From Salaquimonas sp. (GTDB lineage Bacteria; Pseudomonadota; Alphaproteobacteria; Rhizobiales; Rhizobiaceae), in assembly GCA_041742235.1 (NCBI GenBank), contig JBGSJA010000019.1, positions 902 through 64,901 on the forward strand: a stretch of DNA of 64,000 nucleotides, given 5' to 3'. The notes under the pieces were generated by a model. The model saw only the letters and a list, made by a program, of their open reading frames with translations, did not search any database and had not been told where the DNA came from. Both the position numbers and the translations under genes were made by a program. Positions 37,354 to 57,912 of this stretch are shown here, in pieces. The first letter of the stretch is position 1; each line of letters opens with the position of its first letter.

Positions 37354-37357
37354 GGCT

Positions 37358-41230: not shown

Positions 41231-41240
41231 GATAACCGCC

Positions 41241-41741: not shown

Positions 41742-41883
41742 TTGGTTTCTTGTCCAGTGTCAGATGCGAGGCTTCGCGTTCCCCTGGCAAAGGCGTGAGT
41801 TTCGGGGCTGCTTTCCCGGCTGTCGGCATGCAAATTGCTAAGCTACCGTCATGGCGCGGACGCCAGGTGCGGAGAACAAGTAC

Positions 41884-42840
41884 ATGAACGAGATTCCTGT
41901 CATCGACATCGGCGGGCTTTATTCCGGCGGCCCGGGCGAGCGAAAGCGCATCGCGCGCGAAATCGGTGCGGCCTGCCGCGGGACCGGTTTCTTCTACATA
42001 AGCGGGCACGGGGTTGCTCCCGCCTTGATGTCGGACGTGTTTCGCGCGTCCGCCGGCTTTTTTTCCCTGCCGGAAGACACAAAACGGCAGGCGCTCTTTT
42101 CAAGTGCAACGGGAAATCGCGGCTTCATCCCCATGAAGGGGGAAGCGCTCGATCCGACAAAACCGGCTGACCTCAAGGAGGCATTCAACATCGGCCTCGA
42201 ACTTGCACCGGACGATCCCGATATCCTAGCCGGCGCGCGGTTCAGGGCGCTCAATCTTTGGCCATCCCTGCCCGGTTTTCGGGCAACCATGCTCGATTAT
42301 TTCAATGCGGCATGGCGCACGGGATTGCTGCTGCATGAAGCATTTGCCGAAGATCTGGGGCTTGAGCGAACCTATTTCGCCGGCCATCTCGACCGTCCGC
42401 TGGCAACCTTGCGGCTGCTGCACTATCCAAGCCGCCCGCATCAGGTCGAGGCGGGACAGATGGGGGCTGGCGAGCATACCGACTATGGCTGCGTCACACT
42501 CTTGGCGACCGACGACGCAGGCGGCCTGGAGGTGCGCACGCGCGAAGGCGAGTGGCTGGCTGCACCGCATGTGCCGGGCGCGTTCGTTTGCAATATCGGC
42601 GACTGCCTGATGCGCTGGACCAACGACATCTACGTCTCGACGCCGCACCGCGTGGTCAACCCCGCCGGGCGCGAACGCTATTCCGTCGCCTTTTTCCTCG
42701 ATCCCAATCCCGACGCCGTCATTTCCTGCCTGCCTGGGTGCGCCACAGATGAACGGCCGGCGAAATACGCTCCGATCCGCGGCGATGACTACCTGCAAGG
42801 CAAGCTCGACGCCACCTATGCGGCAAGCGGCCTTGCCTGA
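41884..42840 (+). CDS. 2-oxoglutarate/Fe(II)-dependent oxygenase (isopenicillin N synthase family)
   Basis: MNEIPVIDIGGLYSG, GAGEHTDYGCVTLLATD (HxD) and STPHRVVNPAGRERYSVAFF (His and RxS). Confidence 0.8.
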   Translation: MNEIPVIDIGGLYSGGPGERKRIAREIGAACRGTGFFYISGHGVAPALMSDVFRASAGFFSLPEDTKRQALFSSATGNRGFIPMKGEALDPTKPADLKEAFNIGLELAPDDPDILAGARFRALNLWPSLPGFRATMLDYFNAAWRTGLLLHEAFAEDLGLERTYFAGHLDRPLATLRLLHYPSRPHQVEAGQMGAGEHTDYGCVTLLATDDAGGLEVRTREGEWLAAPHVPGAFVCNIGDCLMRWTNDIYVSTPHRVVNPAGRERYSVAFFLDPNPDAVISCLPGCATDERPAKYAPIRGDDYLQGKLDATYAASGLA

Positions 42841-42879
42841 TTGCAATGCTGCGTTGCAACACGATTGTATGCAATAGCT

Positions 42880-42897
42880 ATATTTCCGATGAAATAT
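42880..42897. promoter_or_regulatory. AT-rich inverted repeat, candidate operator
   Basis: ATATTTC-cgat-GAAATAT (7-bp arms) lies in the 275-nt leader upstream of the BMP-type binding-protein gene. Confidence 0.3.
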
Positions 42898-43115
42898 TAA
42901 GCGTCTGTTAACCCATGCCTAATTGTAAGGCACATTCGCTGTCTGAGCCGCCCGGCGCAGGTTTTAAATAACGTCGTGATTTCAACGACATGCTTCCAAG
43001 TATGGTGGCAACTTCATCTGGCATGCCGATTGCAACCCTGCTCCCGAGTGGCTGCGGTTCCCTTGGAGGCGGCCAGTCCGGAGATTGATCAGGCTATTCG
43101 AACAGGAGTTGGAAC

Positions 43116-44231
43116 ATGCCAAACGCAGGAATTAGCAGACGCAGGCTGCTCAAGGCGGGCGCCGCCGGGTTTGCCGCCGCGACATTGCCCATCGGTATGA
43201 TCGGACGCGCGCTCGCAGCGGACGAAGTGGTGCTTGGCGCCGTTTATGTCGGCCCGCGCGATGATTTCGGCTGGAACCAGGCCCACGCCGTCGCCATGGA
43301 AATCCTCAAGGGCGTAGCGAACGTCAAGGTGCTCGAGGAAGAGAACGTCCCCGAGACCGACGCCTGCGCAAAGTCGATGGAGTCGATGATCAACCTCGAC
43401 GGCGCCAACCTGATCCTCGGCACTTCTTTCGGCTACTTCGATCCGTTCATGGTGGATCTTGCGAAGAAGTACCCGGACGTACAGTTCCGCCATGCCGCGC
43501 CCTTGTGGAGCAAGGACAAGCACCCGATGAACCTGGGTGGCTATTTCTGCTATCTCAACCAGGCGCATTTCGTGAACGGCGTTGCCGCAGGCCTCAGCAC
43601 GACCAGCGGCAAGATCGGCTTTGTAGCGGCCAAGCCCATACCGACCGTGCTTTCCAACATCAACTCTGTGCTGCTCGGCGCACGCTCGGTACGTCCAGAC
43701 GCCGAGGTGCAGGTGATCTTCACCGGAGACTGGTCGATGCCGGTCCGCGAGGCGGAAGCGGCAAACGCGCTCGTCGATGCCGGCTGCGATGTGCTGACCT
43801 GCCATGTCGACGGACCAAAGGTGGTGATCGAGACTGCAGAGGGGCGCGGCGTCAAGAGCTGCGGACACAACGCCTCGCAGGCGCCGCTCGCGCCCAAGGG
43901 CTTCATTACCGGCGCAGAGTACAAGTGGGAGACCATCTACAAGATGTTCGCCGACATGCTGGCCAAGGGCGAAGCGTTGCCAAACGTCGTTGTCGGCGGA
44001 TACGACAACGACATGGTCCAGAACACCGCCTACGGGGCGGGAGCCACGCCGGAAGCCATCAAGGCTGCCGACGCGGCCATTGCCGGCCTGAAGGCAAAGA
44101 AGCCGATCTATGTCGGTCCGCTCAAGGACAACACCGGCAAGGTCGTGCTGGAAGCAACCTACGACAACTACGACCCTGTTCTGGACGGCATGAATTTCCT
44201 TCTCGAAGGCGTCAAGGGTTCGATCACCTGA
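43116..44231 (+). CDS. BMP family (basic membrane protein / PnrA-like) ABC substrate-binding protein with Tat-type signal
   Basis: AGGAG lies 7 nt before the ATG. Leader MPNAGISRRRLLKAGAAGFAAATLP. It continues with VLGAVYVGPRDDFGWNQAHAVAME ... GTSFGYFDP ... IGFVAAKPIP. Confidence 0.85.
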   Translation: MPNAGISRRRLLKAGAAGFAAATLPIGMIGRALAADEVVLGAVYVGPRDDFGWNQAHAVAMEILKGVANVKVLEEENVPETDACAKSMESMINLDGANLILGTSFGYFDPFMVDLAKKYPDVQFRHAAPLWSKDKHPMNLGGYFCYLNQAHFVNGVAAGLSTTSGKIGFVAAKPIPTVLSNINSVLLGARSVRPDAEVQVIFTGDWSMPVREAEAANALVDAGCDVLTCHVDGPKVVIETAEGRGVKSCGHNASQAPLAPKGFITGAEYKWETIYKMFADMLAKGEALPNVVVGGYDNDMVQNTAYGAGATPEAIKAADAAIAGLKAKKPIYVGPLKDNTGKVVLEATYDNYDPVLDGMNFLLEGVKGSIT

Positions 44232-44245
44232 AAACCGCTGCCATC

Positions 44246-44270
44246 GCGGGGCCGCCCGGCGCGGCCCCGC
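44246..44270 (+). terminator. intra-operon GC stem-loop after the binding-protein gene
   Basis: GCGGGGCCGC-ccggc-GCGGCCCCGC forms a perfect 10-bp stem with a 5-nt loop, 14 nt after the TGA stop. The architecture matches the hairpin at 13063, but the sequence differs. Confidence 0.55.
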
Positions 44271-44301
44271 ACTCTTCCAAATCCGGTTGCACTGATTGCT
44301 C

Positions 44302-45408
44302 ATGGCAAACGCTGAGATATCGGCCCCAATCCTCCCCGCCGACACTGCCCGCCTGAAGGCAGTTGCGGAGGCGATCTTCATCCCGGCTGCAGCGCTGGTG
44401 ATTTCGGCAATCCTCTTTTCGCTGTTCCTGTTGGCGCTCGGGAAAAGCCCGATCCAGTATTTCGAGCTGGTATGGCGCGGCGGTTTCGGCACATCCTTTT
44501 CCTTCCAGAACACGCTGCAGCGGGCTGCTCCGCTGATCCTGTGCGGACTTGCCTTCGCCATTCCTGCCGTCATCGGCCTGACCATGATCGGGGCGGAAGG
44601 CTCGCTCGTGCTTGGCGGCTTCGCCGCAGCGGCCCTTGCCGTTCCGCTGGTCTCGGCCGGGGCGCCAGTTGCACTGACAATGGTGCTGATGATCTTGGCC
44701 GCCATGGCAGCAGGCGCAGCCTGGAACGCGTTGGCCGGCTGGCTTCGCCACGCCCGCGGGGTCAACGAGACGATTTCCACGCTGCTGCTGACCTACATCG
44801 CAATCGCGATCATGAACTTTTTCGTCGAAGGATTGCTGCGCGATCCCGCTTCCGCCAACAAGCCGTCTACAATGCCGATCGGAAAGGACTACATGGTCGG
44901 GCCCCTGCCCGGCATGGACGTCCATTGGGGCCTCGCCGCCGGCATAGTCTTGGCGATCCTTCTGCAAATCCTGATGTCGCGCACCACGTTCGGCTTTGCC
45001 GCACGACTGACCGGCGGCAATCCGCGCGCCGCGCTTGCGCAGGGCCTGCCGGTCGGTGCGCTTATAGTGGCATGCGCCGCCATCGCCGGCGCCTGCGCGG
45101 GCCTGGCAGGATACTTCGAGGTCGCGGCGATCCACGGCCAGGCAAATGCCTCGCTGGTTGCCGGCTATGGTTTCACGGGCATCCTCGTGTCGTTCCTCGC
45201 CCGCCACAAACCCGTCATCATCGTGCCGGTCGCGATCATGTTCGGCGCGATCGAGGCATCGGGCGGGCTGGTCCAACGGCGTATGGACATGCCGGACGCG
45301 ACGGCGCTAGTGCTGCAGGGGATCATCTTCATCGTGCTTCTGGCCAGCGAGACCATGCATGGGCGCCTTGCCATCTTCCAGCCAAAAGCGGAGGTCGAGC
45401 GCACATGA
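44302..45408 (+). CDS. ABC transporter permease (BMP/nucleoside-type, YufP-like)
   Basis: The first ATG is at 44302; the ORF-track TTG is at 44296. Multi-pass profile with GAEGSLVLGGFAAAALAV ... TLLLTYIAIAIMNFFVEG ... VAGYGFTGILVSFLA. Confidence 0.85.
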   Translation: MANAEISAPILPADTARLKAVAEAIFIPAAALVISAILFSLFLLALGKSPIQYFELVWRGGFGTSFSFQNTLQRAAPLILCGLAFAIPAVIGLTMIGAEGSLVLGGFAAAALAVPLVSAGAPVALTMVLMILAAMAAGAAWNALAGWLRHARGVNETISTLLLTYIAIAIMNFFVEGLLRDPASANKPSTMPIGKDYMVGPLPGMDVHWGLAAGIVLAILLQILMSRTTFGFAARLTGGNPRAALAQGLPVGALIVACAAIAGACAGLAGYFEVAAIHGQANASLVAGYGFTGILVSFLARHKPVIIVPVAIMFGAIEASGGLVQRRMDMPDATALVLQGIIFIVLLASETMHGRLAIFQPKAEVERT

Positions 45409-46325
45409 GTGGTGACGAGCTTGTCGCAATTCTCATCGCCATCCTCGGCGGCGCCATCCGTGTCTCGACGCCGTTCATGTTCGTGGCGCTTGGCGAGACG
45501 CTGACCGAGAAATCCGGCCGCATCAATCTCGGCCTTGAAGGCAATCTCGTCCTGGGCGCCATGGTTGCCTACGGCGTTTCCTACGAAACCGGTTCGCCCT
45601 GGCTTGGCGTGCTAGCCGCCGGGTTTTCCGGCGTGATGCTAGGGCTGATGCATGGCGTCATCTGCAGCCTGCCGCGGGTCAACGACATCGCTGTCGGTCT
45701 TGCCATGATGTCACTCGGCGTCGGTCTCGCCTTCTTTTTCGGCAAGCCGTACATCCAACCCTCCGCTCCCAGGCTTCAATCGCTGCCGCTCGGCGAATGG
45801 GCATCCACCCCCGCGCTGCGGCAGGCGCTGGAGATCAATCCACTCTTCTTCGCCGGCATCCTTGCCGCCGGCATCATGTGGTGGGCTTTCGCCAACACCC
45901 GGGCCGGCCTTGTCGTTCGCATGACCGGAGACTCCGAACCCGCCGCCCGGGCCATGGGCGTCAATCCGATCATGGTCCGCGTGATTGCGACGGCCATGGG
46001 CGGTTTCCTTGCCGGCGTTGGCGGCGCGTTCCTCTCGCTCTCGTACCCGGGAAGCTGGAATGAAGGCCTTTCCTCCGGCCAGGGCTTGATGGCCGTTGCA
46101 CTTGTCATCTTCGCGCGCTGGAATCCGCTGCGCTGCATTCTCGCCGCACTGCTTTTCGGCGCGGCCGGCGCCATCGGGCCTGCGCTCCAGTCGGTCGGCA
46201 TCAGCCAGGGCTATTACTTCTTCAACGCCGCCCCCTACATCCTCACGCTTTTCATCATGATCACCTCGGCACGTTCGTCTTCCTCCGCGCGCGAGGCGCC
46301 GGGCGAACTGTCAATCGTCAAGTAG
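45405..46325 (+). CDS. ABC transporter permease (YufQ-like)
   Basis: The ATG at 45405 overlaps the preceding TGA (ATGA). [35 protein letters not shown]. The ORF-track entry 44472..46325 is an out-of-frame 5' extension. Confidence 0.85.
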
Positions 46326-46333
46326 GAGCCTCG

Positions 46334-47044
46334 ATGAACGCGATCGCCCACGAGACAAAAACCGGTCCAGTAAGGGCGGACCCCTATTCCTGGCCGTTTG
46401 ACGGAGACTTGCGGGCGCGCAACACTGCGCTCGTCATCATCGACATGCAGACGGATTTTTGCGGCAAGGGCGGCTATGTCGACAGCATGGGCTACGATAT
46501 ATCGCTGACCCGCGCGCCGATCGCGCCCATCATGTCCGTTCTGGCGGCGATGCGGAGCCTCGGGTTCCACATCATCCACACCCGCGAGGGGCACAGGCCC
46601 GACCTATCCGACCTGCCAGCCAACAAGCGCTGGCGCTCGCAGCGCATCGGCGCGGGCATTGGCGATCCGGGGCCGTGCGGGCGGATCCTCGTGCGCGGCG
46701 AGCCGGGCTGGGAAATCATCCCCGAACTCTCCCCCCTTCCCGGCGAACCGGTTATCGACAAGCCGGGCAAGGGATCGTTCTGCGCAACCGATCTCGATAT
46801 GCTCCTGCATACACTCGGCGTGCGCAACCTCGTCCTAGCTGGCATCACCACCGATGTCTGCGTCCACACAACCATGCGCGAGGCAAACGACCGCGGCTTC
46901 GAGTGCCTGCTGCTGGAGGATTGCTGCGGGGCGACAAAGCTGGAGAACCATCTTGCCGCAATCGACATGGTCAAGATGCAGGGCGGCGTGTTCGGTGCGG
47001 TTGCGACCAGCGCCGCATTCCTCAAGGCATTGGAGGCGGCGTGA
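46334..47044 (+). CDS. isochorismatase-like cysteine hydrolase, biuret-hydrolase (BiuH)-like
   Basis: AGGAG upstream. [41 protein letters not shown] (Asp), [14 protein letters not shown] (Lys) and [28 protein letters not shown] (Cys) make a complete D-K-C triad. The resemblance to BiuH is from memory. Confidence 0.75.
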
Positions 47045-48594
47045 TGGATGCACTTGTCGCGCACGCCAAGCAGACAGGAGAATTGCGTGGCCTGTCGCTG
47101 CAGACGGTCGGAATGGGCAAGTCTTTCGGCAGGTTGACGGCGCTGGCCGACGTTTCCATCCGCATCGAGGCAGGCGAGTTCCATGCCCTTCTGGGTGAAA
47201 ACGGCGCGGGCAAGTCGACGCTCGTCAAATGCATCATGGGCTTCTACCAGCCGACTGCAGGCCAGTTGATGGTCAACGGCAAGCAGGTCGGGATCCATTC
47301 GCCGGCAGACGCGCAATCCGCGGGGATCGGCATGGTCTACCAACATTTCACCGTGGTGCCCTGCCTGACGGCCGCGGAAAACATGGTGATATCCCGTGCC
47401 GGGGTACCCGCAATCATCGACTGGAAGAAGGAGAAACACGCGCTCGAGGAATTCATGGCGCGCATGCCCTTCACGGTGCCTCTGGACATGCAGGTCTCGG
47501 CGCTTTCAGCCGGCGAGAAGCAGAAACTGGAGATCCTGCGACAGCTTTATCTCGACCAGCGCTTTCTCATCCTCGACGAACCGACATCGGTGCTGACGCC
47601 CGGCGAAGCCGATGAAATCCTCGGCTTGCTCCACGAGATGGCGCGATCGGGCGAAATCACGGTGCTGATGATCACGCACAAATTCCGCGAAGTGACGGCC
47701 TTTGCCGACAAGGTGACGGTGCTGCGCCGCGGCAAGGTGGCCGGAGGCGGCGCCGTGGGAGAGCTTTCCACAGCGGAAATGTCGCGCCTGATGATCGGCG
47801 AAACCGAAGTGCGCAAAAGCGCGGCACGGGCAGTTGCTCCCAATGCCAGCGAGACGCGGCTCGAACTTGCCGCGCTTTACATCGACGATCCCGACGGATC
47901 CCCGGTGGTGGAAGCGTTGGATCTCAAGATCAAGGCCGGTGAGATCGTCGGCATAGCAGGCGTGTCGGGCAACGGCCAAAGCGCGCTTTTGGAGGGGATT
48001 TCGGGACAAAGACCGATCCGCGACGGGCGCATTTTCATCCACGGCAAGCCGTTCGAGGCAACCCGCCGCGATTATGACCGCTTCAAGGTATTCGGCCTGC
48101 CGGAGGAACCGCTGAAGAACGCGGCGGTGAGGCGCATGAGTGTTGCCGAAAACATTGCCTTTCGCAGTTTCGACAAGCCGCCCGCCGCGAGCATGGGATG
48201 GTGGCTGAAACCGGCCTCCATGCGGATGCGGGCAGCGGGGCTGATCGAGCGGTACCGCGTCAAGACGCCATCGACGGAAACGCCCATCGAGAACCTATCC
48301 GGCGGCAACGTGCAGCGCACCATACTTGCGCGTGAACTTTCCGGCGAGGTCGAGGTGCTGATCGTCGCCAACCCGTGCTTCGGGCTCGACTTCGCATCGG
48401 TGGCCGAAATCCGCGCGCAGATCATCGACCAGCGCAACCGCGGCGCGGCAGTGCTGCTGATATCGGAGGATTTGGACGAGATACTGGAACTTTCCGACCG
48501 GGTCGCTGTCATGTCGGGCGGGCGCATCACCTATGTCGCGCCGGTCGCGGAAGCGGACCGCAACACCATCGGCAAATACATGGCGGGGCACTGA
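47044..48594 (+). CDS. ABC transporter ATP-binding protein with duplicated nucleotide-binding domains
   Basis: NBD1: [36 protein letters not shown]2: [34 protein letters not shown]. Its start overlaps the hydrolase stop. Confidence 0.85.
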
Positions 48595-49268
48595 TGATCA
48601 CTGTCGCCGCAGAGCCGTATCCGTACACCATGCCTCACGATGCCACGGCGCTGGTCGTCATCGACATGCAACGCGACTTCGTCGAACCGGGCGGCTTTGG
48701 CGCAGCGCTCGGGAACGACGTTTCGCGCCTGACAGCCATCGTTCCGGTGGTGGCCGGGCTTCTTTCACTTTTCAGGGCTCGCAGCTGGCCCGTCATCCAC
48801 ACCCGCGAGGCGCACCGCCCGGACCTTTCCGACTGCCCGCCGTCGAAGATCGCCCGCGGCAGTGCATCGCCGCGCATCGGCGAGGAGGGTCCGATGGGAA
48901 GGCTGCTGGTGTCGGGCGAACCGGGCAACCAGATTGTCGGCGATCTCGCGCCATTGCCGGGCGAAACGGTCGTGGACAAGCCCGGCAAGGGCATGTTCTG
49001 GGCGACGGGCCTGCACGAGAAATTGCAGGCCGACGGCATCACACACCTCGTCTTTGCCGGGGTCACGACCGAGGTCTGCGTCCAGACTTCGATGCGCGAG
49101 GCCAATGATCGCGGATATGAATGCCTGCTGATCACAGACGCAACCGAAAGCTATTTTCCCGAGTTCAAGGCATCGACGATCAGGATGATCACGGCGCAGG
49201 GCGGAATCGTCGGCTGGGCCGCGCCTCTTTCCAATCTGAAGACCGCACTGACGGATAGCGGCGCATGA
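48594..49268 (+). CDS. isochorismatase-like cysteine hydrolase (second paralogue)
   Basis: The ATG at 48594 overlaps the ATPase [37 protein letters not shown] and [27 protein letters not shown] give the D-K-C triad. Confidence 0.8.
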
Positions 49269-49453
49269 GCGAGGAACCGTTCGACCCGAAAAAACTGATC
49301 GACGCGATGGCCCCGTTCCTGGGACTGGAAGTCGCCGCCGAATACAGGCCGGGCGTCGCCGCCCACCTGTCTGCGGCCCACCGGATCGCGCAGGACGTTC
49401 TGGCCGCGCAAATCGACGACGATGCCGAACAAGCGCCGGTCTTCCGCCCGTGA
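49265..49453 (+). CDS. AtzG-like small protein (DUF4089)
   Basis: 62 aa: [66 protein letters not shown] overlap upstream and GTGA overlap with the amidase downstream. Size, position and the C-terminal APVF motif fit the AtzG/GatC-like partner of AtzE. Confidence 0.6.
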
Positions 49454-50847
49454 CCGATCCATCCTTACTCACGGCGGCGGAAATTGCGGCAGGCGTTCGG
49501 GGCCGCAAGTTCAGCGCCGCCGATGTAACGGCGCATGCGCTTGGCCGGATAGCCAAACTCGATCCCTTGCTCAACGCATTCACGGCGGTCACGGCGGAGC
49601 GCGCGATCGCCAAGGCAGCCGCGGTGGATGCTGTGATCGCCGCAGGCAAGGACCCAGGACCGTTGGCCGGCGTGCCCTTCGCGGCGAAGAACCTTTTCGA
49701 CATCGAGGGCGTTGTCACGCTGGCCGGTTCGAAGATCAACCGCGACAACAACCCGGCAAGTAAGGATTCAACGCTGGTAGCCCGGATGGAGGCGGCGGGC
49801 GCGATCCTCACGGGGGCATTGAACATGGGCGAATATGCCTACGACTTCACCGGTGAGAACGTCCACTACGGACCATCGCGCAATCCGCATTCGCCCGAAC
49901 ACATGTCCGGGGGGTCGTCCGGCGGATGCGGCACCGCGGTGGCCGCAGGCATGGTTGCGCTGGCGCTGGGCTCCGACACCAATGGCTCCATCCGTGTGCC
50001 GTCCTCGCTTTGCGGATTGTTCGGCCTCAAACCGACCTATGGACGGCTGCCCCGAACCGGCACATTTCCCTTTGTTGACAGCCTCGATCATCTCGGCCCG
50101 TTCGCTCGCCGCACACAGGACCTCGCGCTTTGCCTCGACGCGATGTCCGGCGCGGACGCGGCTGACCCAACATGCTCGCCGGAGCATTTCGCGCCCGTGA
50201 CCCCTTTGCTGAAAACCGGCATTGACGGGCTGAGCATCGCGAAGGCCGGAGGCTATTTCTCGACTGGCGGCCATGCGGAGGCGTTCGAGGCGGTTGACCG
50301 CATTGCGGCGGCGCTCGATGTGTCCGGCACGGTCGCAATCGACGCGAAGGCCGCGCGCGGGGCGGCCTACCTCATCACCATGGCCGAGGGGGCATCCTTG
50401 CACCTTGAGCGTCTGCGCCGACGCCATGCGGACTTCGATCCGGACGTGCGCGACCGCCTGATTGCGGGGGCAATGATCCCGGGAGCGTGGGTGGCAAAGG
50501 CGCAGAAACTGCGCCGCGTCTTTCGCCGGCAAATGCTGGACATCTTCGAAGAAGTCGATGCGCTGATCGCGCCGGCAACGCCCTGCCGCGCGCCGCGTAT
50601 CGGGCAAAGGCTGATGACGATCGACGGCGTGGGAATGCCCGTGCGGCCCAATCTTGGCCTTTTCACCCAGCCCGTTTCATTTATCGGATTTCCGGTGGTC
50701 AGCGTTCCGGTCTGGACCGGGGGCGAACAATTGCCGATCGGCGTCCAGATCATTGCGGCCCCCTGGCGCGAGGACATCGCGCTTCGCATCGCCCATCATC
50801 TCGAGGCCGCCGGCGTGGTCCGGGCTCCGACAGCAAGGGAAGCATGA
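49450..50847 (+). CDS. amidase-signature enzyme, AtzE (1-carboxybiuret hydrolase)-like
   Basis: GTG start. GVPFAAKNLFDIEGVVTLAGSK, MSGGSSGGCGTAVAAG and GSDTNGSIRVPSSLCG give the Ser-cisSer-Lys signature. It sits directly between the AtzG-like and AtzH-like genes. Confidence 0.75.
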   Translation: MTDPSLLTAAEIAAGVRGRKFSAADVTAHALGRIAKLDPLLNAFTAVTAERAIAKAAAVDAVIAAGKDPGPLAGVPFAAKNLFDIEGVVTLAGSKINRDNNPASKDSTLVARMEAAGAILTGALNMGEYAYDFTGENVHYGPSRNPHSPEHMSGGSSGGCGTAVAAGMVALALGSDTNGSIRVPSSLCGLFGLKPTYGRLPRTGTFPFVDSLDHLGPFARRTQDLALCLDAMSGADAADPTCSPEHFAPVTPLLKTGIDGLSIAKAGGYFSTGGHAEAFEAVDRIAAALDVSGTVAIDAKAARGAAYLITMAEGASLHLERLRRRHADFDPDVRDRLIAGAMIPGAWVAKAQKLRRVFRRQMLDIFEEVDALIAPATPCRAPRIGQRLMTIDGVGMPVRPNLGLFTQPVSFIGFPVVSVPVWTGGEQLPIGVQIIAAPWREDIALRIAHHLEAAGVVRAPTAREA

Positions 50848-50848
50848 C

Positions 50849-51619
50849 GTGGAACAAAAGGGCCGCTGGGCGGGGCGCAACAACGACAAGGACAATGTCC
50901 GCGACGCGGTCTGGGGCGCGCTGGAAAATGGCGGCATGGCGCTGGGGCCGGTGTGGAGCCACATTCCCAACTTCATCGGCGCCGACATGGCCGCCTGGCG
51001 CCTTGCGCAAACCGATGCCTGGAAGCGCGCTCGCACGGTAAAATGCAACCCCGATCCGCCGCAAGTTCCGGTTCGCCTGCGGGCACTGTACGAAGGCAAG
51101 ATCCTCTATGCGCCGGTGCCCTATCTCACGAAGGATTTTCCGTATCTTCGGATCGATCCGGAACGGCTGAAGACAAATGGCATCTCCTTCGAGCTGGCGG
51201 CGACATCGGAAGGATACATGACGCATGGTGAACGGATCGAATTCGAGGAAGTCGAACCGCTCGATTTCTGCGTCGTTGGCTCGGTCGCGGTGAGCCGCGA
51301 AGGTGGCCGCACCGGCAAGGGCGCAGGCTTTGCCGACCTTGAGACGGGCATTTTCCGGGAACTTGGAATCATCACCGCAGCGACCCCGATGGCGACGACC
51401 ATCCACTCCTCGCAGCTCGTCGACAATTCGCGCGTGTTCATGATGAAGCACGATTCCCCGCTCGATTTCATCGCCACGGAAGCGGAGCTGATCGTCACCG
51501 GAAACAGTGCGCCGCGCCCGCGCGGGGTAGCGTGGGAATTCGTGGAGGCCGACCAGTTTGAGAGCATCCCTTTCCTGAAAGCATTGCGCGAACGGATGCT
51601 GCAGCGCGGGGATGGCTGA
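50849..51619 (+). CDS. 5-formyltetrahydrofolate cyclo-ligase family protein
   Basis: The frame of ORF 50654..51619 has no ATG before the conserved part. I call the GTG at 50849, 1 nt after the amidase stop, giving (M)EQKGRWAGRNNDKDNVRDAVWGALE. Further motifs: KCNPDPPQVPVR ... FCVVGSVAVSREGGRTGKGAGFADLE ... HDSPLDFI. The start call is uncertain. Confidence 0.6.
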   Translation: MEQKGRWAGRNNDKDNVRDAVWGALENGGMALGPVWSHIPNFIGADMAAWRLAQTDAWKRARTVKCNPDPPQVPVRLRALYEGKILYAPVPYLTKDFPYLRIDPERLKTNGISFELAATSEGYMTHGERIEFEEVEPLDFCVVGSVAVSREGGRTGKGAGFADLETGIFRELGIITAATPMATTIHSSQLVDNSRVFMMKHDSPLDFIATEAELIVTGNSAPRPRGVAWEFVEADQFESIPFLKALRERMLQRGDG

Positions 51620-52019
51620 CATGGTCGTCAACGATCCGCAGGTTCACGCAGAAGTCTGCGCCGTGTTCGAGCGCTACGAAAAGGCGCTGGTATCAAACGA
51701 CATCGCCGTGCTCGACGAACTGTTCTGGCAGGACGAGCGTGTGCTGCGATACGGCATCGGCGAGAACCTTTACGGTGTCGGCGAGATCCTCGCCTTCCGA
51801 AAGGCGCGGCCATCGGCAGGGCTGGCTCGGGATTTGTCGAAGACGGTGATCACCACTTTCGGCGCCGACTTCGCCACGGCATCGACGCTGTTTCATCGCA
51901 TCAATGCGCCGGGAAAGGTCGGCCGGCAGATGCAGACCTGGGTGCGCATGGCCGGCATCTGGAAGGTGGTCGCGGCGCATGTGAGCATCATCGACGCGCC
52001 GGACGCTGGCGCGCCATAG
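51612..52019 (+). CDS. AtzH-like / HpxZ-like NTF2-fold protein (DUF3225)
   Basis: VFERYEKALVSNDIAVLDELFWQDERVLRYGIGENLYGVGEILAFRKAR ... GRQMQTWVRMAGIWKVVAAHVS. It overlaps the preceding stop by 8 nt; an alternative ATG lies at 51621. Confidence 0.65.
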   Translation: MADMVVNDPQVHAEVCAVFERYEKALVSNDIAVLDELFWQDERVLRYGIGENLYGVGEILAFRKARPSAGLARDLSKTVITTFGADFATASTLFHRINAPGKVGRQMQTWVRMAGIWKVVAAHVSIIDAPDAGAP

Positions 52020-52041
52020 GCACCCTTGCTATTGGAACCCG

Positions 52042-52716
52042 ATGCAAACCTCCGCCGAAGCCATACGCCATGAACTGGCGCGCCGGATCGTAACCCGCCG
52101 GATAGAACCGGGAAGCGTGCTCGACGAAACGCAGCTTGCCGCCGAATTCTCCGTCTCGCGCACGCCGGTGCGCGAAGCGCTGCGCAAGCTTGCGACGCTT
52201 GGCCTGGTCGAACACCGCGCCCATCGCAGGACCACCGTGAGCAAGCCCGATCCGCAAATGCTTGCCGGAATGTTCGCGGTGATGGCGCATCTGGAAATGC
52301 TGTGTGCCGGCTTGAGCGCGGTGAAGATGGGTCCGGCGGAGCGCAACCGGCTTGAACAGATGCATGAGCGGATGGGGGCATTGGTTCGCGCCGGCGACGC
52401 GGAAAGCTACGCAATCGCCAACGAAGCTTTTCACTCGGCCATCTACGAGGGCACGAAGAACGCCTATCTGGCTGAGATCACGACCAACACGCGTCTGCGC
52501 CTGCAGGCGTTCCGGCGGGCGCAATTTGCCGCGATGGGGCGCATAGCATCATCGCATTGCGAGCACGGCATGATCGTGGATGCCATTTTGCGCGGTGAGC
52601 GCGACATCGCGCAATCGGCCATGCTTGCCCATATCGGCCATGTCGAGGATGCGTGGCAGCATGTTTCCGCAATGCCTCACGCCGAAGCCGAGACAAAGGC
52701 CCGCCAGGACTTGTAG
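52042..52716 (+). CDS. GntR family transcriptional regulator, FadR subfamily (FCD domain)
   Basis: LDETQLAAEFSVSRTPVREALRKLATLGLVEHRAHRRTTV, followed by the FCD pattern (MAHLEMLCAGLSA ... ANEAFHSAIYEG ... CEHGMIVDAIL). Confidence 0.8.
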   Translation: MQTSAEAIRHELARRIVTRRIEPGSVLDETQLAAEFSVSRTPVREALRKLATLGLVEHRAHRRTTVSKPDPQMLAGMFAVMAHLEMLCAGLSAVKMGPAERNRLEQMHERMGALVRAGDAESYAIANEAFHSAIYEGTKNAYLAEITTNTRLRLQAFRRAQFAAMGRIASSHCEHGMIVDAILRGERDIAQSAMLAHIGHVEDAWQHVSAMPHAEAETKARQDL

Positions 52717-54422
52717 CTCGAAATGTCGCGCGCGCCTTGGATGGCTTGCGCCTCGACAAGAAAGCCCTGGACGGCCGTTCCGTTCTTCAGTCGCAACGTG
52801 CCGATGCCAAGCGGCGCCGGTATGCCCGCAACGAAACTGCCGTAAGCTTCCCGCGACATCGACCAGACCTCGACCGCGATTTCCTCGCCCGTGCCTTCGG
52901 GAACTCGCAACAGTCCCGGCTTGGGCGGCACGGTTCCCGCCAGGGCGTAAAGCCGGTAATCGGCAGTCGTTGAAGTTGCTTCGACGAAATTCGCGTTCCG
53001 GCTGGTCAGCTCATGGTTGAGCGGCATGCCAGACAAATGCGCGCCGACGACAGCGAGCCGGATTTCCTGCCCTGGAACGGTAGGTTCAGAAGCGATGCCG
53101 GTTTCGACAAGGCTCGCCAGGCCCGCAAGCATTGCGTCCGACCCCGCCTTGCCAATGAGTGTAAGCGACGACGGAAGCCCGTCTGCGCGCATTCCGGCCG
53201 GAACCGAGAAAGCCGCAAGGTCGAGCAGGTTCACGAAATTGGTGTATGTCCCGAGGTTGGAATTGAGCCGCACCGGATCGGCCAGAACTTCTTCTACTGT
53301 GTAGACCGTCGGGATGGACGGCACCGCCAGCATGTCGATCGAACTCAACACGGGTTCGACGGCGCGGCGCAGCGCGGCGAGCCGGTACAGCGCGTCGAAT
53401 GTATCCACCGAGTTGAATTTGGAGGCGCCGGAAATGATAGCGCGTGTCACCGGGTGCAGCGCATCGGGGTTCCGTTCGATGATGCCTCGAACGGCATGAT
53501 AACGCTCGGCCACCCATGGCCCCTCGTAAAGCAGGCGGGCAACATCGAAGAACGGCGTGAAGTCGATTTCGCGGATGCTGCCACCGATTGTGGCCAGCCG
53601 TTCCAGATCCGCCTCATATGCCTTTTCGGCGATAGCATCTCCAAAGAACTGCCGGTCGGCATTGCGTGGAACACCGATACGGAGCATTGGCGGCGCGGCT
53701 GCGATGCCCGCGGGCGGCAATCTGCGGGACATGAAATCGGCGGCGTCGTATCCGGCGGCGACCGCAGCGACTTCGGCGGCATCGGCGGCGTTTGCTGCAA
53801 ACACCGATATCGTGTCGAGCGTCCGGCAGGCGGGCACGACGCCTGTGGCGGAGAGCAGTCCAAGGCTGGGCTTCAAGCCGGCAATGCCGTTGAGCGCCGC
53901 CGGCACGCGTCCGGAACCTGCCGTATCCGTGCCGAGCGAAAACGCGGCGATGCCTGCGCCGACCGCCACTGCCGAACCCGAACTTGAGCCGCCGGGCACG
54001 AGGTCCGGCCGCAGAGTGTTCTTCGGAACGCCGTAGGGCGAGCGTACGCCGACAAGGCCGGTGGCAAACTGGTCGAGATTGGTCTTGCCGATGACGATCG
54101 CGCCGGCCGCCTCCAGCAGCCCCACGACATGCGCCGAAACTGTCGGTACATAGGCGAATTCGGGGCAAGCGGCCGTTGTCGGCATGCCGGCAACATCGAT
54201 ATTGTCCTTGACGGCGAATGGCAGGCCGAAAAGCGGCTTGCCCGCTGCGTCCTCCCTTTCGTGTTTTAGCGCGGCCTTGAGCGCGTCATCGCGGTCGCGC
54301 AATGTGATGAAAATCGCATCATCGCCATGCGAGGCGATCCTTGCATAGGTGGTTTCGATTGCCTCGACGGGCGACATGGCCCGCCATGTTTGAAAAGATC
54401 TGGCTTTCGGATTTCTGGACAT
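52677..54422 (-). CDS. allophanate hydrolase (AtzF-like: amidase domain plus C-terminal allophanate-hydrolase domain)
   Basis: GLPFAVKDNIDVAGMPTTAACP, GGSSSGSAVAV and the C-terminal LRLKNGTAVQGFLVEAQAIQGARDISSYKSWRAF. An alternative start lies at 54377 (MSPVEAIE). The 3' end overlaps the convergent regulator gene by 40 nt. Confidence 0.8.
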   Translation of the reverse strand: MSRNPKARSFQTWRAMSPVEAIETTYARIASHGDDAIFITLRDRDDALKAALKHEREDAAGKPLFGLPFAVKDNIDVAGMPTTAACPEFAYVPTVSAHVVGLLEAAGAIVIGKTNLDQFATGLVGVRSPYGVPKNTLRPDLVPGGSSSGSAVAVGAGIAAFSLGTDTAGSGRVPAALNGIAGLKPSLGLLSATGVVPACRTLDTISVFAANAADAAEVAAVAAGYDAADFMSRRLPPAGIAAAPPMLRIGVPRNADRQFFGDAIAEKAYEADLERLATIGGSIREIDFTPFFDVARLLYEGPWVAERYHAVRGIIERNPDALHPVTRAIISGASKFNSVDTFDALYRLAALRRAVEPVLSSIDMLAVPSIPTVYTVEEVLADPVRLNSNLGTYTNFVNLLDLAAFSVPAGMRADGLPSSLTLIGKAGSDAMLAGLASLVETGIASEPTVPGQEIRLAVVGAHLSGMPLNHELTSRNANFVEATSTTADYRLYALAGTVPPKPGLLRVPEGTGEEIAVEVWSMSREAYGSFVAGIPAPLGIGTLRLKNGTAVQGFLVEAQAIQGARDISSYKSWRAFVSASA

Positions 54423-54648: not shown

Positions 54649-55413
54649 ATGTTCTCCCTTGGCAAGAAAAGAGCGTTGGTCGTCGGTATCGCCAACGAAA
54701 ACTCGATTGCGTGCGGTTGCGCCCGCGCCTTCAGGGCGCAGGGTGCGGAACTTGCGGTTACCTACCTCAACGACAAGGCCGAACCCCATGTCAAGCCCGT
54801 TGCCGAGGACCTTGGCGCGAGCATGTTCATGCCGCTCGACGTAAGCAGGGATGGCGAAATCGAAGCGGTGTTTTCGCAGATCGGCCGGCAATGGGGAAGC
54901 CTGGACATCTTGCTGCATTCGATTGCCTATGCGCCGCGTGAGGACTTGCACGGGCGGGTCATCGACTGCTCGGCGTCCGGTTTTGCCATGGCCATGGACA
55001 TCTCGGTCCATTCGTTCTTGCGGATGATCCGCCTGGCCGAGCCATTGATGACCTCCGGCGGCACCTGCCTCGCAGTTTCATTCTTCGGCTCGTCGCGCGT
55101 GGTCTCCAACTACAACATGATGGGCCCGGTGAAGGCAGCGCTCGAAAGCGCCGTCAGGTACGCAGCCGCCGAACTCGGCGGGAAGGGCATCACCGTCCAT
55201 GCCCTCTCCCCCGGTCCGCTGCGCACTCGGGCGGCTTCCGGCATTTCCCATTTCGACGAGATGCTCGACGCGGCGGCCCGGCGTGCGCCGACGCACCAGC
55301 TTGCGACGATCGAGGATGTCGGCGCCTTCGCTGCATTCCTCGCTTCCAACGAAGCGCGAAACGTCACGGGTGGTGTTCACGAAATCGATGGCGGTTATTC
55401 CATCACAGCTTGA
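54649..55413 (+). CDS. fabI: enoyl-[acyl-carrier-protein] reductase (NADH), FabI-type
   Basis: LGKKRALVVGIANENSIACGCARAF, LLHSIAYAP, YNMMGPVKAALES (Y-x6-K) and ALSPGPLRTRAASG. Confidence 0.8.
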   Translation: MFSLGKKRALVVGIANENSIACGCARAFRAQGAELAVTYLNDKAEPHVKPVAEDLGASMFMPLDVSRDGEIEAVFSQIGRQWGSLDILLHSIAYAPREDLHGRVIDCSASGFAMAMDISVHSFLRMIRLAEPLMTSGGTCLAVSFFGSSRVVSNYNMMGPVKAALESAVRYAAAELGGKGITVHALSPGPLRTRAASGISHFDEMLDAAARRAPTHQLATIEDVGAFAAFLASNEARNVTGGVHEIDGGYSITA

Positions 55414-55422
55414 GGACAGACC

Positions 55423-57912
55423 ATGGCCAGCATTTTCGACTTGCTAGAACCTTCCCGCCAGAAAAACCTGCCCTATGCCGAGACGGATGTTCTGGGGAAG
55501 GTTCGCCACGCGCTGATGGATGCACAGCGCGAAGTGAACGACATTGCGCACAGCCACGGCATCCAGACGGCGGCCCTCCTCGCCCACAGCCGGCGCATCG
55601 TCGACAGTCATTCGGGCCGGGGCGGCAATACGCTCGAAATTGCCAACAAGGTTCTGGATGAACTTCGCTCCACGCAACAGGAAGGCAGGCTTGGCGAAGC
55701 CTGGCTTGAATACCTGACGGATGCAGGCGAGCGTTTCGTGCTGACGATGGACACCTTGCGCAAGCGCGGCGACATCTTCCTCGAACATGAACAGGCCGGG
55801 TGCCCGCCGGTGCTCGTCTATGAGTACGAAAAGGTCATGGATGGAGCGGACCTTCCTTTTCCTTCCAACTACGAGTTGCTGCGGATCTTGCCCCCGGCGG
55901 GGATCGAAGTGAAGGACTGGAAGCGGCCCTATATGATCATCGACCCGCGCGCAGGGCACGGGCCGGGGATCGGTGGTTTCAAGTCCGACAGCCAGGTCGG
56001 CGTCGCCCTTCGTGACGGGCACCCGGTTTATTTCGTTTCTTTTCGCCGCGAGCCGGAACCCGGTCAGTATCTGGCCTATGTAACCCGCACCCAGTCAGCC
56101 TTCGTGCGCGAAGTGATGCGCCGTCACCCCGAATCGCCAAAGCCAGTCATAACCGGCAATTGCCAGGGCGGGTGGGCAACGCTGCTGCTGGCTGCGATGA
56201 ACCCCGATCTCACCGGGCCGGTGGTCATCAACGGCGCTCCGGTAGCCACATGGGCGGGCGAGGTGGGCCTCTACCCGATGCGCTACAATGGCGGGGTCGT
56301 CGGCGGAACGTGGATACCGATGGCGCTCTCCGATGTCGGCGGCGGAATCTTCGACGGGGCGCACCTGGTGCAGAATTTCGAGCTGCTCAATCCCTCGCGA
56401 ACCCTGTTCCACAAATACACCGACCTCTTCAGGGACATCGACAAGGGCGATGAACGCTTCCTCGAATTCGAGAGATGGTGGGGCGGCTTTTTCCTGATGA
56501 GCGAACCCGAGATCAAATGGATCGTCGAGCAACTTTTCGTCGGCAATCGCCTGGTCAAGAACGAGGCCCGGATCGAACCGGGCCGGCCGGTCGACCTGAA
56601 GGCAATCCGAGCGCCCATCATTGTGTTCGCCTCGCATGGCGACAACATCACCCCGCCCCAGCAGGCGCTCAACTGGATCGCTGAAACCTATTCGGACGTC
56701 AACGAGATCAAGATCCGCGGCCAGCGCATCATCTACATGGTGCACAACGAGGTTGGCCATCTGGGCATTTTCGTATCCTCGCAAATCGCCAACAAGGAAC
56801 ATGCCGAGGTAGCATCGACGCTCAAGACGATCGAGGCGCTGGCGCCCGGGCTGTACGAGATGCGCATCGATGATGTTGCCGGTGACGGGATGCACCGGCG
56901 CTTCACCGTTGGTTTCACCGAGCGTACGCTGGACGACATTCGCGCGCTCGACGACGACCACCACGACGAGCGGCCTTTCGCGGCGGTGGCAAGGGCCTCG
57001 GAAATGCAGGCGCAGGCCTATGACTTGTTCGTCCGGCCGTTCGTCAAGGCCGCGGTTACCGACACTACTGCAGAGCTGAGCCGTGCCATGCACCCGCAAA
57101 GGCTGACCCGCGCCCTCATGTCGTCGCGCAGTCCGCTCGTTCGCGGCCTCGAGGAGCGCGCCGGGCAGGTTCGGGCGGAACGCAAGCCCGCCGCCCCGGA
57201 CAATCCCTTCCTGGCGGCAGAGGCCCTGTGGGTGGAGATGGCCGGGCAGGCGATCGATCTGTGGCGCGATCAACGGGACATGATGACGGAACTGATGTTC
57301 CACGGTGTCTGGGGACAGCCATGGATGCGCGCCTTCGGCCGCTCGCACGATGCGCGGCGCACGCTGAAGAACGCCCATGAATTGAGGGCCCTGCCGGAAG
57401 TAAGCGCGGCGCTTTTCAACATCGAGCGCGGCGGCTTCATCGAAGCCGTCATCCGCATGCTGATCCTGCTTGCCGAGAACCGCGGCACAGTGCGCCGCGA
57501 CCGCCTCGAAAGGGCAAGCCGCGTGCTGACACAGGACGAACCGTTCAAGTCGCTGACAGCGGAGCGGCGCGCCATGATCATCCATGAACAGACCCTCATC
57601 GCGACCTACGAACCCGACGCCGCGATCGACACCCTGCCGGTCCTCCTCAAGACTGCGGAGGAACGCGACCTCGCGGCGCGCATCGTCCAGTACATTCCGG
57701 GCGCGATCGGCGAAATGACGCCGAAGACCCTCGAGATGCTGCAGCGGTTTCACAAGGTTCTCGATCTGCCACCGGTTACCGCCGACATTCTTTCCGATCC
57801 ACTTTCCGCAGGCGTGCAAGCGGCACCAATGGCGGCTGACCCCGCATTGGCTGGCGGTGGGAACGGGCGTGCAAGGCGCAAGACTGCATCGCAAGAGGCG
57901 GCCGGCGAATGA
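55423..57912 (+). CDS. DUF3141 family protein with PHA-synthase-like alpha/beta-hydrolase core (829 aa)
   Basis: GAGGA lies 6 nt before the ATG. The lipase-box-like GNCQGGWATLLLAA (G-x-C-x-G-G as in PhaC), FASHGDNITPPQQALNW and HNEVGHLGIFVS suggest a Cys-Asp-His triad. It has a long helical C-terminal extension. Confidence 0.65.
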   Translation: MASIFDLLEPSRQKNLPYAETDVLGKVRHALMDAQREVNDIAHSHGIQTAALLAHSRRIVDSHSGRGGNTLEIANKVLDELRSTQQEGRLGEAWLEYLTDAGERFVLTMDTLRKRGDIFLEHEQAGCPPVLVYEYEKVMDGADLPFPSNYELLRILPPAGIEVKDWKRPYMIIDPRAGHGPGIGGFKSDSQVGVALRDGHPVYFVSFRREPEPGQYLAYVTRTQSAFVREVMRRHPESPKPVITGNCQGGWATLLLAAMNPDLTGPVVINGAPVATWAGEVGLYPMRYNGGVVGGTWIPMALSDVGGGIFDGAHLVQNFELLNPSRTLFHKYTDLFRDIDKGDERFLEFERWWGGFFLMSEPEIKWIVEQLFVGNRLVKNEARIEPGRPVDLKAIRAPIIVFASHGDNITPPQQALNWIAETYSDVNEIKIRGQRIIYMVHNEVGHLGIFVSSQIANKEHAEVASTLKTIEALAPGLYEMRIDDVAGDGMHRRFTVGFTERTLDDIRALDDDHHDERPFAAVARASEMQAQAYDLFVRPFVKAAVTDTTAELSRAMHPQRLTRALMSSRSPLVRGLEERAGQVRAERKPAAPDNPFLAAEALWVEMAGQAIDLWRDQRDMMTELMFHGVWGQPWMRAFGRSHDARRTLKNAHELRALPEVSAALFNIERGGFIEAVIRMLILLAENRGTVRRDRLERASRVLTQDEPFKSLTAERRAMIIHEQTLIATYEPDAAIDTLPVLLKTAEERDLAARIVQYIPGAIGEMTPKTLEMLQRFHKVLDLPPVTADILSDPLSAGVQAAPMAADPALAGGGNGRARRKTASQEAAGE

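Follow-up and report, generated by a model that had tools for sequence, protein, structure and literature searches.

The described systems closest to the locus analysed here belong to the bacterial catabolism of triuret and of cyanuric acid, and TrtB is reported to have been defined by Aukema et al. in 2020, a source for the triuret operon along with Tassoulas et al. 2021. Two routes are known for the intermediate 1-carboxybiuret, namely decarboxylation by TrtB and, in cyanuric acid-degrading bacteria, deamination by AtzEG. Urea fertiliser, which is spread on fields in very large amounts, contains triuret and biuret as impurities, and both might also arise from the oxidation of uric acid (PMC7948467). 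Triuret is hydrolysed by TrtA to 1-carboxybiuret and NH3. The 1-carboxybiuret in turn breaks down to biuret (half-life about 20 min) and is hydrolysed by AtzEG, a known carboxybiuret amidase (PMC7948467). According to a supplementary legend of Tassoulas et al. 2021 (PMC7948467), the triuret clusters of Herbaspirillum sp. BH-1 as well as Rhizobium leguminosarum bv. viciae 3841 contain trtA, trtB, biuH, atzD, atzF, a GntR gene and an ATP-binding cassette (ABC) transporter cassette; AtzEG is mentioned in that paper solely as the Pseudomonas sp. ADP enzyme for the TrtA product. Esquirol et al. 2018 noted atzGEH clusters that lack AtzD, of which some carry allophanate hydrolase, ABC transporters and "amidases", and could assign no substrate to them (PMC6219798) because TrtA was not yet known at the time. 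Here, we describe a gene cluster in Salaquimonas sp. in which a predicted trtA gene is directly followed by atzG-, atzE- and atzH-type genes. It lies in a stretch of 64,000 nucleotides (64 kb; contig JBGSJA010000019.1, positions 902 to 64,901), from now on referred to as the window.

A sequence-only reading of this DNA had proposed a nitrogen-scavenging cluster for a urea-condensation compound or carboxylated ureide, and orthology of its hydrolases to TrtA and BiuH narrows this proposal to triuret plus biuret. With a probability of roughly 80%, we interpret the locus as a sigma-54 operon, probably nitrogen-regulated, for the uptake and complete mineralisation of triuret and biuret. In the proposed pathway, a Tat (twin-arginine)-exported BMP-family binding protein and its ABC transporter would, as judged from context, import triuret and biuret. 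TrtA would hydrolyse triuret to 1-carboxybiuret and NH3, replacing the ring-opener AtzD as the source of 1-carboxybiuret, which AtzE-AtzG would convert to 1,3-dicarboxyurea with release of a further NH3. An AtzH-type NTF2 enzyme would then yield allophanate and CO2, and AtzF would cleave allophanate to 2 NH3 and 2 CO2. Biuret, either imported or formed by spontaneous decarboxylation of 1-carboxybiuret, would be hydrolysed by BiuH to allophanate and NH3, and a protein of the 5-FCL fold would act as a conserved accessory component.

Two paralogous hydrolases are encoded on either side of the transporter ATPase gene (all coordinates refer to the window and, unless noted, to its plus strand). Hydrolase 1 (46334..47044), previously called BiuH-like, scores 417.6 bits against the NCBIfam BiuH equivalog NF050097 with its cutoff of 370, and its best PDB match is the crystallised R. 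leguminosarum BiuH (6AZO, 407 bits, 75% identity). Hydrolase 2 (48594..49268; PF00857, 143.5 bits) reaches 238.9 bits on NF050097, which is under the cutoff, and its best PDB match is TrtA from Herbaspirillum sp. BH-1 (6XIX/6XJE) with 310 bits as compared with 187 bits for BiuH 6AZO, corresponding to 66% identity to TrtA versus 44-47% to BiuH. The residues distinguishing TrtA from BiuH are F35, N41, E160 and I205, arranged around a common Q202 and replaced by Tyr, Tyr, Asp and Val in BiuH (PMC7948467). At TrtA positions 35/41/160/162/202/205, hydrolase 1 carries Y/Y/D/C/Q/V and thus the BiuH signature, while hydrolase 2 is identical to TrtA at D24, F35, N41, E160, C162, Q202 and I205, a set comprising the catalytic Cys162 with D24 and the second-shell residues specific to TrtA. 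The same residue split is seen in the reference pairs of R. leguminosarum and Herbaspirillum. The sequence-only reading had correctly noted two paralogues but left both their roles and the entry substrate open, a question that is largely closed by homology, with hydrolase 1 the probable BiuH orthologue and hydrolase 2 the probable TrtA orthologue.

TrtA is followed by an AtzG-like small subunit of 62 amino acids (49265..49453; PF13318, former DUF4089, 52.7 bits vs cutoff 24), which overlaps the gene for AtzE, the predicted 1-carboxybiuret amidohydrolase (49450..50847), by 4 nt. AtzE scores 691 bits on the AtzE equivalog NF006631 (cutoff 461) and 666 bits on TIGR02715, and matches Pseudomonas sp. 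ADP AtzE (6C62) over its full length with 481 bits. The two-domain allophanate hydrolase AtzF (52677..54422, minus strand) contains Amidase and AH_C domains (PF01425 and PF21986) and scores 773 bits on TIGR02713 with a cutoff of 511. The AtzG, AtzE and AtzF assignments of the sequence-only reading therefore stand. AtzEG is predicted from context to act on 1-carboxybiuret in this system, given its placement right after TrtA or, in two related loci discussed below, after AtzD.

The cluster was compared across 31 loci, representing one genome per GTDB species and identified by scanning with the 5-FCL-like protein, and a Hoeflea locus (L002) was added for the AtzG/AtzE and NTF2 comparisons. Almost all loci are from Hyphomicrobiales (Oricola, Zhengella, Roseitalea, Labrys, Devosia, Nitratireductor, Salinarimonas, Rhizobium and Roseiarcus), with one Rhodobacteraceae metagenome-assembled genome (MAG), and the same cluster is found in 30 of the 31. 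BiuH is kept in all loci, and most clusters include AtzF. A TrtA orthologue (62-91% identity), without AtzD within 10 kb, is encoded in 27 of the 30 clusters, while one locus (L005) is ambiguous. Thirteen loci encode AtzE together with AtzG, and 17 lack the pair. The AtzG-like ORF lies directly 5' of AtzE in all AtzE loci (14/14, the 13 of the scan and Hoeflea) and in none of the 17 loci without AtzE, where the 5-FCL-like gene comes directly after TrtA at a distance of 0-50 nt. Further, a formamidase (CN_hydrolase) is encoded between permease 2 and BiuH in the pRL10 locus of R. johnstonii 3841 (L001, 6137-7153) and in 13 related loci, but not in the window. Some versions of the cluster may thus also process formyl-ureides; published TrtA has weak formylurea activity.

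The sequence-only reading had emphasised the lack of a ring-opening amidohydrolase, and this holds for the window, where a tblastn search of the 64 kb with R. leguminosarum AtzD gave zero matches and a hidden AtzD was rejected. As TrtA yields 1-carboxybiuret, the AtzEG substrate, from linear triuret, AtzD is not needed and its absence is no surprise. In two loci from uncultured Alphaproteobacteria MAGs (L029 and L032), AtzD is found in place of TrtA, with the order BMP, permeases, (formamidase), BiuH, AtzD, ATPase, AtzG, AtzE, 5-FCL-like, AtzH and a 2-oxoglutarate (2OG) oxygenase, and these loci are predicted to be a cyanuric acid version of the cluster joining BiuH with AtzEG. The window operon might likewise serve cyanuric acid for the most part, with AtzD encoded elsewhere in the genome and triuret as a side substrate. 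Such a role would be in line with the AtzD genes carried by sister clusters of the same backbone (R. leguminosarum L001, L029 and L032) and with AtzEG-AtzH-AtzF constituting the cyanuric acid route of Pseudomonas sp. ADP (PMC6219798). We nonetheless consider it unlikely, given the lack of AtzD in 64 kb, the prevalence of TrtA without AtzD within 10 kb (27 of 30 related clusters) and the roughly 10^4-fold or greater selectivity of published TrtA for triuret over other substrates (PMC7948467), whose signature residues are intact here. It is also not exclusive, since AtzD encoded elsewhere would feed the same intermediates.

The NTF2 protein (51612..52019) was previously annotated as AtzH-like, in agreement with its scores of 186.9 bits on PF11533 (former DUF3225) and 141.7 bits against AtzH (6BJT). 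That the small ORF and the NTF2 protein would pass the DUF4089 and DUF3225 models had been named beforehand as one of the points on which the sequence-only reading depended, and both do so (PF13318 and PF11533). All nine AtzH pocket residues are kept (Tyr22, Arg46, Arg63, Arg66, Arg73, Phe94, Arg96, Gln106 and Gln108), and the protein is assigned as AtzH-type on these grounds; among them, Arg66 is part of the arginine-rich pocket holding both carboxylates of 1,3-dicarboxyurea (PMC6219798).

The window copy and its relatives, comprising 14 AtzE-linked and 17 AtzE-less proteins, were aligned with Pseudomonas sp. ADP AtzH, HpxZ-like 2RCD and the Herbaspirillum TrtB-like protein. AtzH positions 52, 53 and 66 separate the two groups perfectly: AtzE-linked copies carry N, L and R, whereas AtzE-less copies carry H, Q, V or Y at position 52, Q at position 53 and Q or G at position 66. 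Position 69 splits the groups less cleanly, with several residues on each side. At positions 52/53/66, Pseudomonas AtzH and HpxZ read N/L/R and the Herbaspirillum TrtB-like protein reads V/L/C. Because a pocket residue switches in step with the presence of AtzE, the window would encode the deaminating branch consisting of AtzEG, AtzH and AtzF. We infer that the AtzE-less copies are functional TrtB, and the loss of Arg66 makes chemical sense, in our view, if their substrate is 1-carboxybiuret with one carboxylate and one amide. TrtB is given as a homologue of AtzH and HpxZ in the legend of Fig. S11 of PMC12625717, and TrtB was placed in its family indirectly, through this figure legend and the Herbaspirillum locus. 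Residue 66, together with 52 and 53, offers a simple sequence marker to annotate DUF3225 proteins as AtzH-type or TrtB-type.

Were the NTF2 protein instead a TrtB-type carboxybiuret decarboxylase, with AtzEG acting on some other amide, flux would only proceed from triuret via carboxybiuret and biuret to allophanate. Its gene does occupy the Herbaspirillum trtB position just 5' of the GntR gene, and the general retention of BiuH would suit this arrangement. However, R66/N52/L53 are found in the window as in Pseudomonas AtzH, as opposed to Q/G66 and Q53 in 17/17 AtzE-less copies and C66 in the Herbaspirillum TrtB-like protein, and AtzE scores 691 bits on its equivalog, making a TrtB-type assignment quite improbable.

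TrtA homologues with an N-terminally fused AtzH/TrtB-like domain (PF11533 + PF00857) were found in metagenomes (P0163, P0176, P0186, P0187, P0202 and P0239). These proteins are 344-378 amino acids long and 73-77% identical to Herbaspirillum TrtA. They appear to be a natural joining of two consecutive pathway enzymes and support a functional link between them.

Located between AtzE and the NTF2 enzyme is a 5-FCL (MTHFS)-fold protein of 256 amino acids with a GTG start (50849..51619), whose earlier family assignment agrees with a PF01812 score of 63.9 bits against a cutoff of 27. With an 8-nt coordinate overlap (51612/51619), translation of its gene is coupled to that of the NTF2 gene. The protein matched no NCBIfam model, and PDB sequence searches with the protein and its family profile returned nothing significant, with no solved MTHFS matched. 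An AlphaFold2 model of moderate confidence (pLDDT 71, pTM 0.77) gave MTHFS structures as top Foldseek matches (2JCB, 1YDM, 1SOU, 1WKC and 3HY6/3HY4/3HY3/3HXT), with E-values of 5e-9 to 2e-5, TM scores of about 0.62-0.68 on the target and 15-21% identity. The family alignment shows 76-79% mean column identity and the invariant elements K14-x-x-x-R18, IPNF-GAD, NPD-PQ-P-R-R, R154-T-G-K-G-A-G-F-A-D-L-E and H201-D202. By comparison with MTHFS structures, we take the ATP/Mg site to consist of the K/R pair, the two Asp and the loop rich in glycine. In MTHFS, the Tyr-Tyr of the G-x-G-Y-Y-D loop contacts folate. A low-probability hhalign alignment limited to the G-rich loop pairs GKGAGFADLE of the window protein with GRGKGYYDAY, taken here as the human MTHFS loop. 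Canonical MTHFS features are not preserved: Phe-Ala replaces Tyr-Tyr, the length of 256 amino acids compares with 168-198 residues for the matched chains (canonical about 190-200), and the invariant motifs IPNF-GAD and NPD-PQ-P-R-R are additional to MTHFS. PF01812 and the MTHFS fold are shared with MTHFS and with the 5-FCL-like paralogues of the At1g76730 type (PMC3223725). The 5-FCL-like protein is a probable nucleotide-using enzyme with a non-folate substrate, which we offer as a lead and not as a result.

In 29 of the 31 species-level loci, the 5-FCL-like gene is located between TrtA/AtzE and the AtzH/TrtB-like gene, and one further locus (L033) ends inside the gene. Gaps to the NTF2 gene range from -4 to 42 nt, with L031 (186 nt) as the sole exception. 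The gene is found in essentially all alphaproteobacterial triuret operons compared, these loci having been identified through that very protein. Unlike in the NTF2 protein, no column of its alignment tracks the presence of AtzE. As the alignment is indifferent to AtzE and the gene accompanies either AtzH- or TrtB-type NTF2 genes, the protein most likely acts at or near a step common to both branches. It would not be essential for the core chemistry, since the gene is missing from the clusters characterised in Herbaspirillum and R. leguminosarum. As a tentative idea, which we hold as possible but doubtful, the protein could be an undescribed ATP-using enzyme of ureide catabolism that is paired with the AtzH/TrtB NTF2 enzyme and acts on a common N-carboxylated or N-acyl ureide. 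It might then capture or re-route labile 1-carboxybiuret or allophanate before dead-end decay, or handle formyl-ureides. If true, one step or control point of the triuret pathway would still be to be found.

Uptake by a BMP-type transporter of the nucleoside/purine-binding family had been proposed, and the corresponding components are all encoded. The BMP-family substrate-binding protein, the predicted periplasmic triuret/biuret binding component (43116..44231; PF02608, 113 bits), carries the twin-arginine signal SRRRLLK, as read from its sequence, and matches a Brucella BMP protein (3S99) with 166 bits and AtzT (6PI5) with 159 bits. It is followed by two BPD_transp_2 permeases, permease 1 at 44296..45408 (PF02653, 111.8 bits; TTG start at 44296 or ATG at 44302) and permease 2 at 45405..46325 (PF02653, 123.9 bits), which overlap by 4 nt, and, after BiuH, by an ABC ATPase with two nucleotide-binding domains (47044..48594; PF00005 in two stretches), whose ATG at 47044 overlaps the BiuH stop codon (TGATG) and for which GTG at 47041 is an alternative start. 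The position of the BMP gene is the same in the Herbaspirillum and R. leguminosarum clusters. Neither the BMP importer nor the GntR regulator is unusual, because both occur in published triuret clusters and the Pseudomonas sp. ADP atz operon has the BMP-type AtzT. A passage in PMC12625717 lists bmpA-nupABC with the same gene set in nitrifier MAGs.

Several observations weigh against the assignment of the operon to triuret and biuret. All steps are inferred from homology or orthology to characterised enzymes and from genomic context. BMP proteins usually bind purines or nucleosides, and a transporter importing ordinary nucleosides or purines, with the hydrolases as unrelated passengers, would be in keeping with family PF02608, with the best PDB match 3S99 being modelled with adenine and AtzT having bound guanine (structure records), as well as with the nearest NCBIfam transporter models, which are putative vitamin B6 and sugar ABC systems, all far under their cutoffs. 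This is highly improbable, as the operon encodes no nucleosidase, phosphorylase, deaminase or ribokinase, and BiuH lies between permease 2 and the ATPase with TrtA after the ATPase, an order that is the same from Herbaspirillum to Rhizobiales.

On the NCBIfam HpxZ (oxalurate) equivalog, the NTF2 protein likewise exceeds the cutoff (190 bits vs 135), and its best PDB match is HpxZ-like 2RCD (159 bits). With the pockets of HpxZ 2RCD and AtzH being identical, sequence alone cannot tell 1,3-dicarboxyurea from an oxalurate-derived substrate. AtzG-AtzE-AtzH could therefore represent an HpxX-HpxY-HpxZ-type oxalurate module in a cluster for purine-derived ureides (oxalurate, allantoin derivatives) instead of triuret, the more so as atzGEH clusters are commonly tied to allantoate and purine catabolic genes (Esquirol et al., PMC6219798). 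We regard this as very unlikely. The trio sits right after TrtA, whose product is the AtzEG substrate, and in L029 and L032 another carboxybiuret producer, AtzD, takes TrtA's place beside AtzE. Most loci include allophanate hydrolase in the cluster, an enzyme that the carboxybiuret route requires and an oxalurate route does not. The cluster lacks an HpxW/GGT-type oxamate amidohydrolase, allantoate amidohydrolase and AllFGHK, and family scans of the operon and its flanks found neither HpxW (a GGT-like oxamate amidohydrolase) nor allantoate catabolic genes. Of the candidate substrates listed in the sequence-only reading, biuret and triuret are thus retained, whereas oxalurate is less coherent with the absence of an HpxW-type enzyme and the presence of allophanate hydrolase.

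The correlation of R66 with AtzE is partly phylogenetic. In a neighbour-joining tree of the NTF2 proteins without bootstrap, AtzE-less clades adjoin AtzE-containing ones at least twice, which suggests at least two or three independent switches at residue 66 and a correlation that is not purely one inherited event. Also on the opposing side, the 5-FCL-like protein occurs outside ureide clusters. Lone copies that are 77-80% identical to that of the window were found in L030 (10001-10768) and L037 (5051-5836), located in one lineage between bamE and an unannotated gene, near plsX/fabH and purC/purS/purQ, with no ureide genes within about 8 kb. The wider family comprises 168 representative clusters at E <= 1e-30 and includes members of about 46% identity from Cyanobacteria and Chloroflexi (L038 8001-9312 from Microcoleus sp., L039 and L040), which adjoin Macro-domain, PfkB kinase, SIS-domain or ADP-ribosyl-glycohydrolase genes. 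These contexts are unrelated to ureides, limiting guilt by association to the alphaproteobacterial clade, and hint at a different, possibly nucleotide- or sugar-phosphate-related role of the wider family. A Pfam scan of longer relatives revealed no informative fusion partner, with one GNAT and one amine-oxidase fusion.

The triuret and biuret operon, as we interpret it, is preceded by a sigma-54 (-24/-12) type promoter, TGGCAT-N5-TTGCA, at 43019..43034, about 80 nt 5' of the BMP start codon. It is the only match in the 64 kb (0.11 expected; one or more matches in 10 of 100 shuffled sequences). Of 27 homologous upstream regions, 24 have the motif GGCA[CT]N5TTGC 54-99 nt 5' of the BMP start, among them that of R. 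leguminosarum 3841 but not that of Herbaspirillum. No sigma-70-like promoter was found in 40300-43200, nor any Rfam element such as a guanidine riboswitch. Sigma-54 promoters fit control by nitrogen limitation, and the operon is probably sigma-54-transcribed and nitrogen-regulated. The near-palindromic 12-mer ATTGTATGCAAT at 42864..42875, an exact match in the window, may serve as an operator or upstream binding site, perhaps recognised by the GntR regulator. A 10-nt core, TTGTAT[GA]CAA, recurs about 95-180 nt 5' of the promoter motif in 13 of the 27 upstream regions and forms the perfect palindrome TTGTATACAA in L018. The GntR/FadR-type (FCD) regulator (52042..52716; PF00392 + PF07729) is encoded directly after the NTF2 gene, as in Herbaspirillum and most related loci, and is likely the pathway-specific regulator.

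All genes listed in the sequence-only reading were found as intact ORFs at the coordinates given here and pass their family models. The tight overlap it had described is mostly borne out, with junctions overlapping by 1, 4 or 8 nt (TGATG, ATGA, GTGA and one of 8 nt) or separated by 1-22 nt, except for a 64-nt gap 3' of the BMP gene. These junctions fit a translationally coupled operon. AtzF is convergent, and its 3' end overlaps that of the GntR gene by 40 nt. The term "island", in contrast, was not borne out: base composition is uniform, no tRNA gene is found in the 64-kb window and nothing marks horizontal acquisition. A mobile or acquired island was rejected on the uniform GC content, and a known plasmid locus was likewise rejected, as a megablast search against plasmids gave only partial matches of about 70-78% identity.

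Directly 5' of the BMP gene and on the same strand, a 2OG-Fe(II) oxygenase (41851..42840; DIOX_N + 2OG-FeII_Oxy by Pfam) forms its own transcription unit 5' of the sigma-54 promoter. The same arrangement is seen in 11 related loci, and the gene is located 3' of the cluster in 2. Its best PDB matches are EFE-like (ethylene/succinate-forming-enzyme-like) 9OVH (239 bits), 6JYV and thymine dioxygenase 5C3P (166 bits). Its role might be to produce or alter the ureide substrate, for instance through oxidative loss of an N-substituent. Further upstream, two tandem GntR/FCD-type ORFs (40463-41230 and 41130-41741) overlap by about 100 nt; the first has a helix-turn-helix and an FCD domain, while the second has FCD only with no detectable helix-turn-helix and no counterpart in related loci, where the first ORF was not searched for.

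A second catabolic cluster of the nitrogen-heterocycle type spans 10888-23465 and encodes a GntR/UTRA regulator, a Peripla_BP_6 ABC transporter, aconitase-like large and small subunits, a PEP-mutase/isocitrate-lyase-family protein, hydantoinases B and A (19068-22864) and a third isochorismatase-family hydrolase (22677-23465) that is 30% identical to BiuH. On the minus strand, a 766-amino-acid ORF (30969-33269) combines an ABC-transporter ATPase domain with N- and C-terminal UPF0261 domains and may be either a genuine fusion or an ORF called too long; it adjoins a Peripla_BP_6/permease set and an amidohydrolase (33988-38797). Directly after AtzF, an unrelated plus-strand cluster (54649-60484) encodes a FabI-like enoyl reductase, a DUF3141 protein (829 amino acids, weak polyhydroxyalkanoate-synthase similarity), a bifunctional enoyl-CoA hydratase/phosphate acetyltransferase and acetate kinase.

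Compared with the described systems, the operon is closest to the Herbaspirillum triuret locus (L035), whose TrtA is 91% identical to the characterised enzyme and whose order is AtzF-BMP-permease-permease-BiuH-ATPase-TrtA-AtzH-like (125 amino acids)-GntR. Backbone and gene order are the same as in the window, but atzG, atzE and the 5-FCL-like gene, which separate trtA from the NTF2 gene, are found in the window only. The R. johnstonii 3841 pRL10 locus, the R. leguminosarum cluster of the comparisons above, consists of a GntR gene and a BMP, permease, permease, formamidase, BiuH, AtzD, ATPase, TrtA and cupin series. It shares the sigma-54 motif with the window, which lacks its AtzD, formamidase and cupin. 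In contrast to the published triuret operons, the NTF2 protein of the window is AtzH-type (R66) and not TrtB-type, and whereas the published route is decarboxylation to biuret, the window is predicted to add or substitute a deaminating route. With the atzDGEHF and atzSTUVW genes of Pseudomonas sp. ADP (PMC6219798; PMC6834077), the window has in common AtzG, AtzE, AtzH and AtzF homologues and a BMP-type binding protein, with the same predicted chemistry from 1-carboxybiuret onward. It differs in the absence of AtzD, the presence of BiuH, a 5-FCL-like gene between atzE and atzH, a GntR-type instead of a LysR-type regulator and a promoter of the sigma-54 type. In the hpxWXYZ genes of Klebsiella and other Enterobacteriaceae, the small subunit, the amidase-signature enzyme and the NTF2 protein have homologous counterparts, while the trio of the window is tied to TrtA, BiuH and AtzF.

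Full-text literature searches in an incomplete collection found no paper placing TrtA and AtzEG in one operon or naming the 5-FCL-like gene. In about half of the related alphaproteobacterial genomes, AtzEG-AtzH is plugged directly into the triuret operon, and atzGEH clusters without AtzD thereby gain a concrete natural source of substrate, the question left by Esquirol et al. 2018. The comparison also flags the strongly conserved 5-FCL-fold gene and the sigma-54 promoter as parts of the system, with the overall pathway picture unchanged. On this basis, the locus is a variation on a known pathway, with a deaminating route for triuret and one further conserved gene, rather than a new kind of system.

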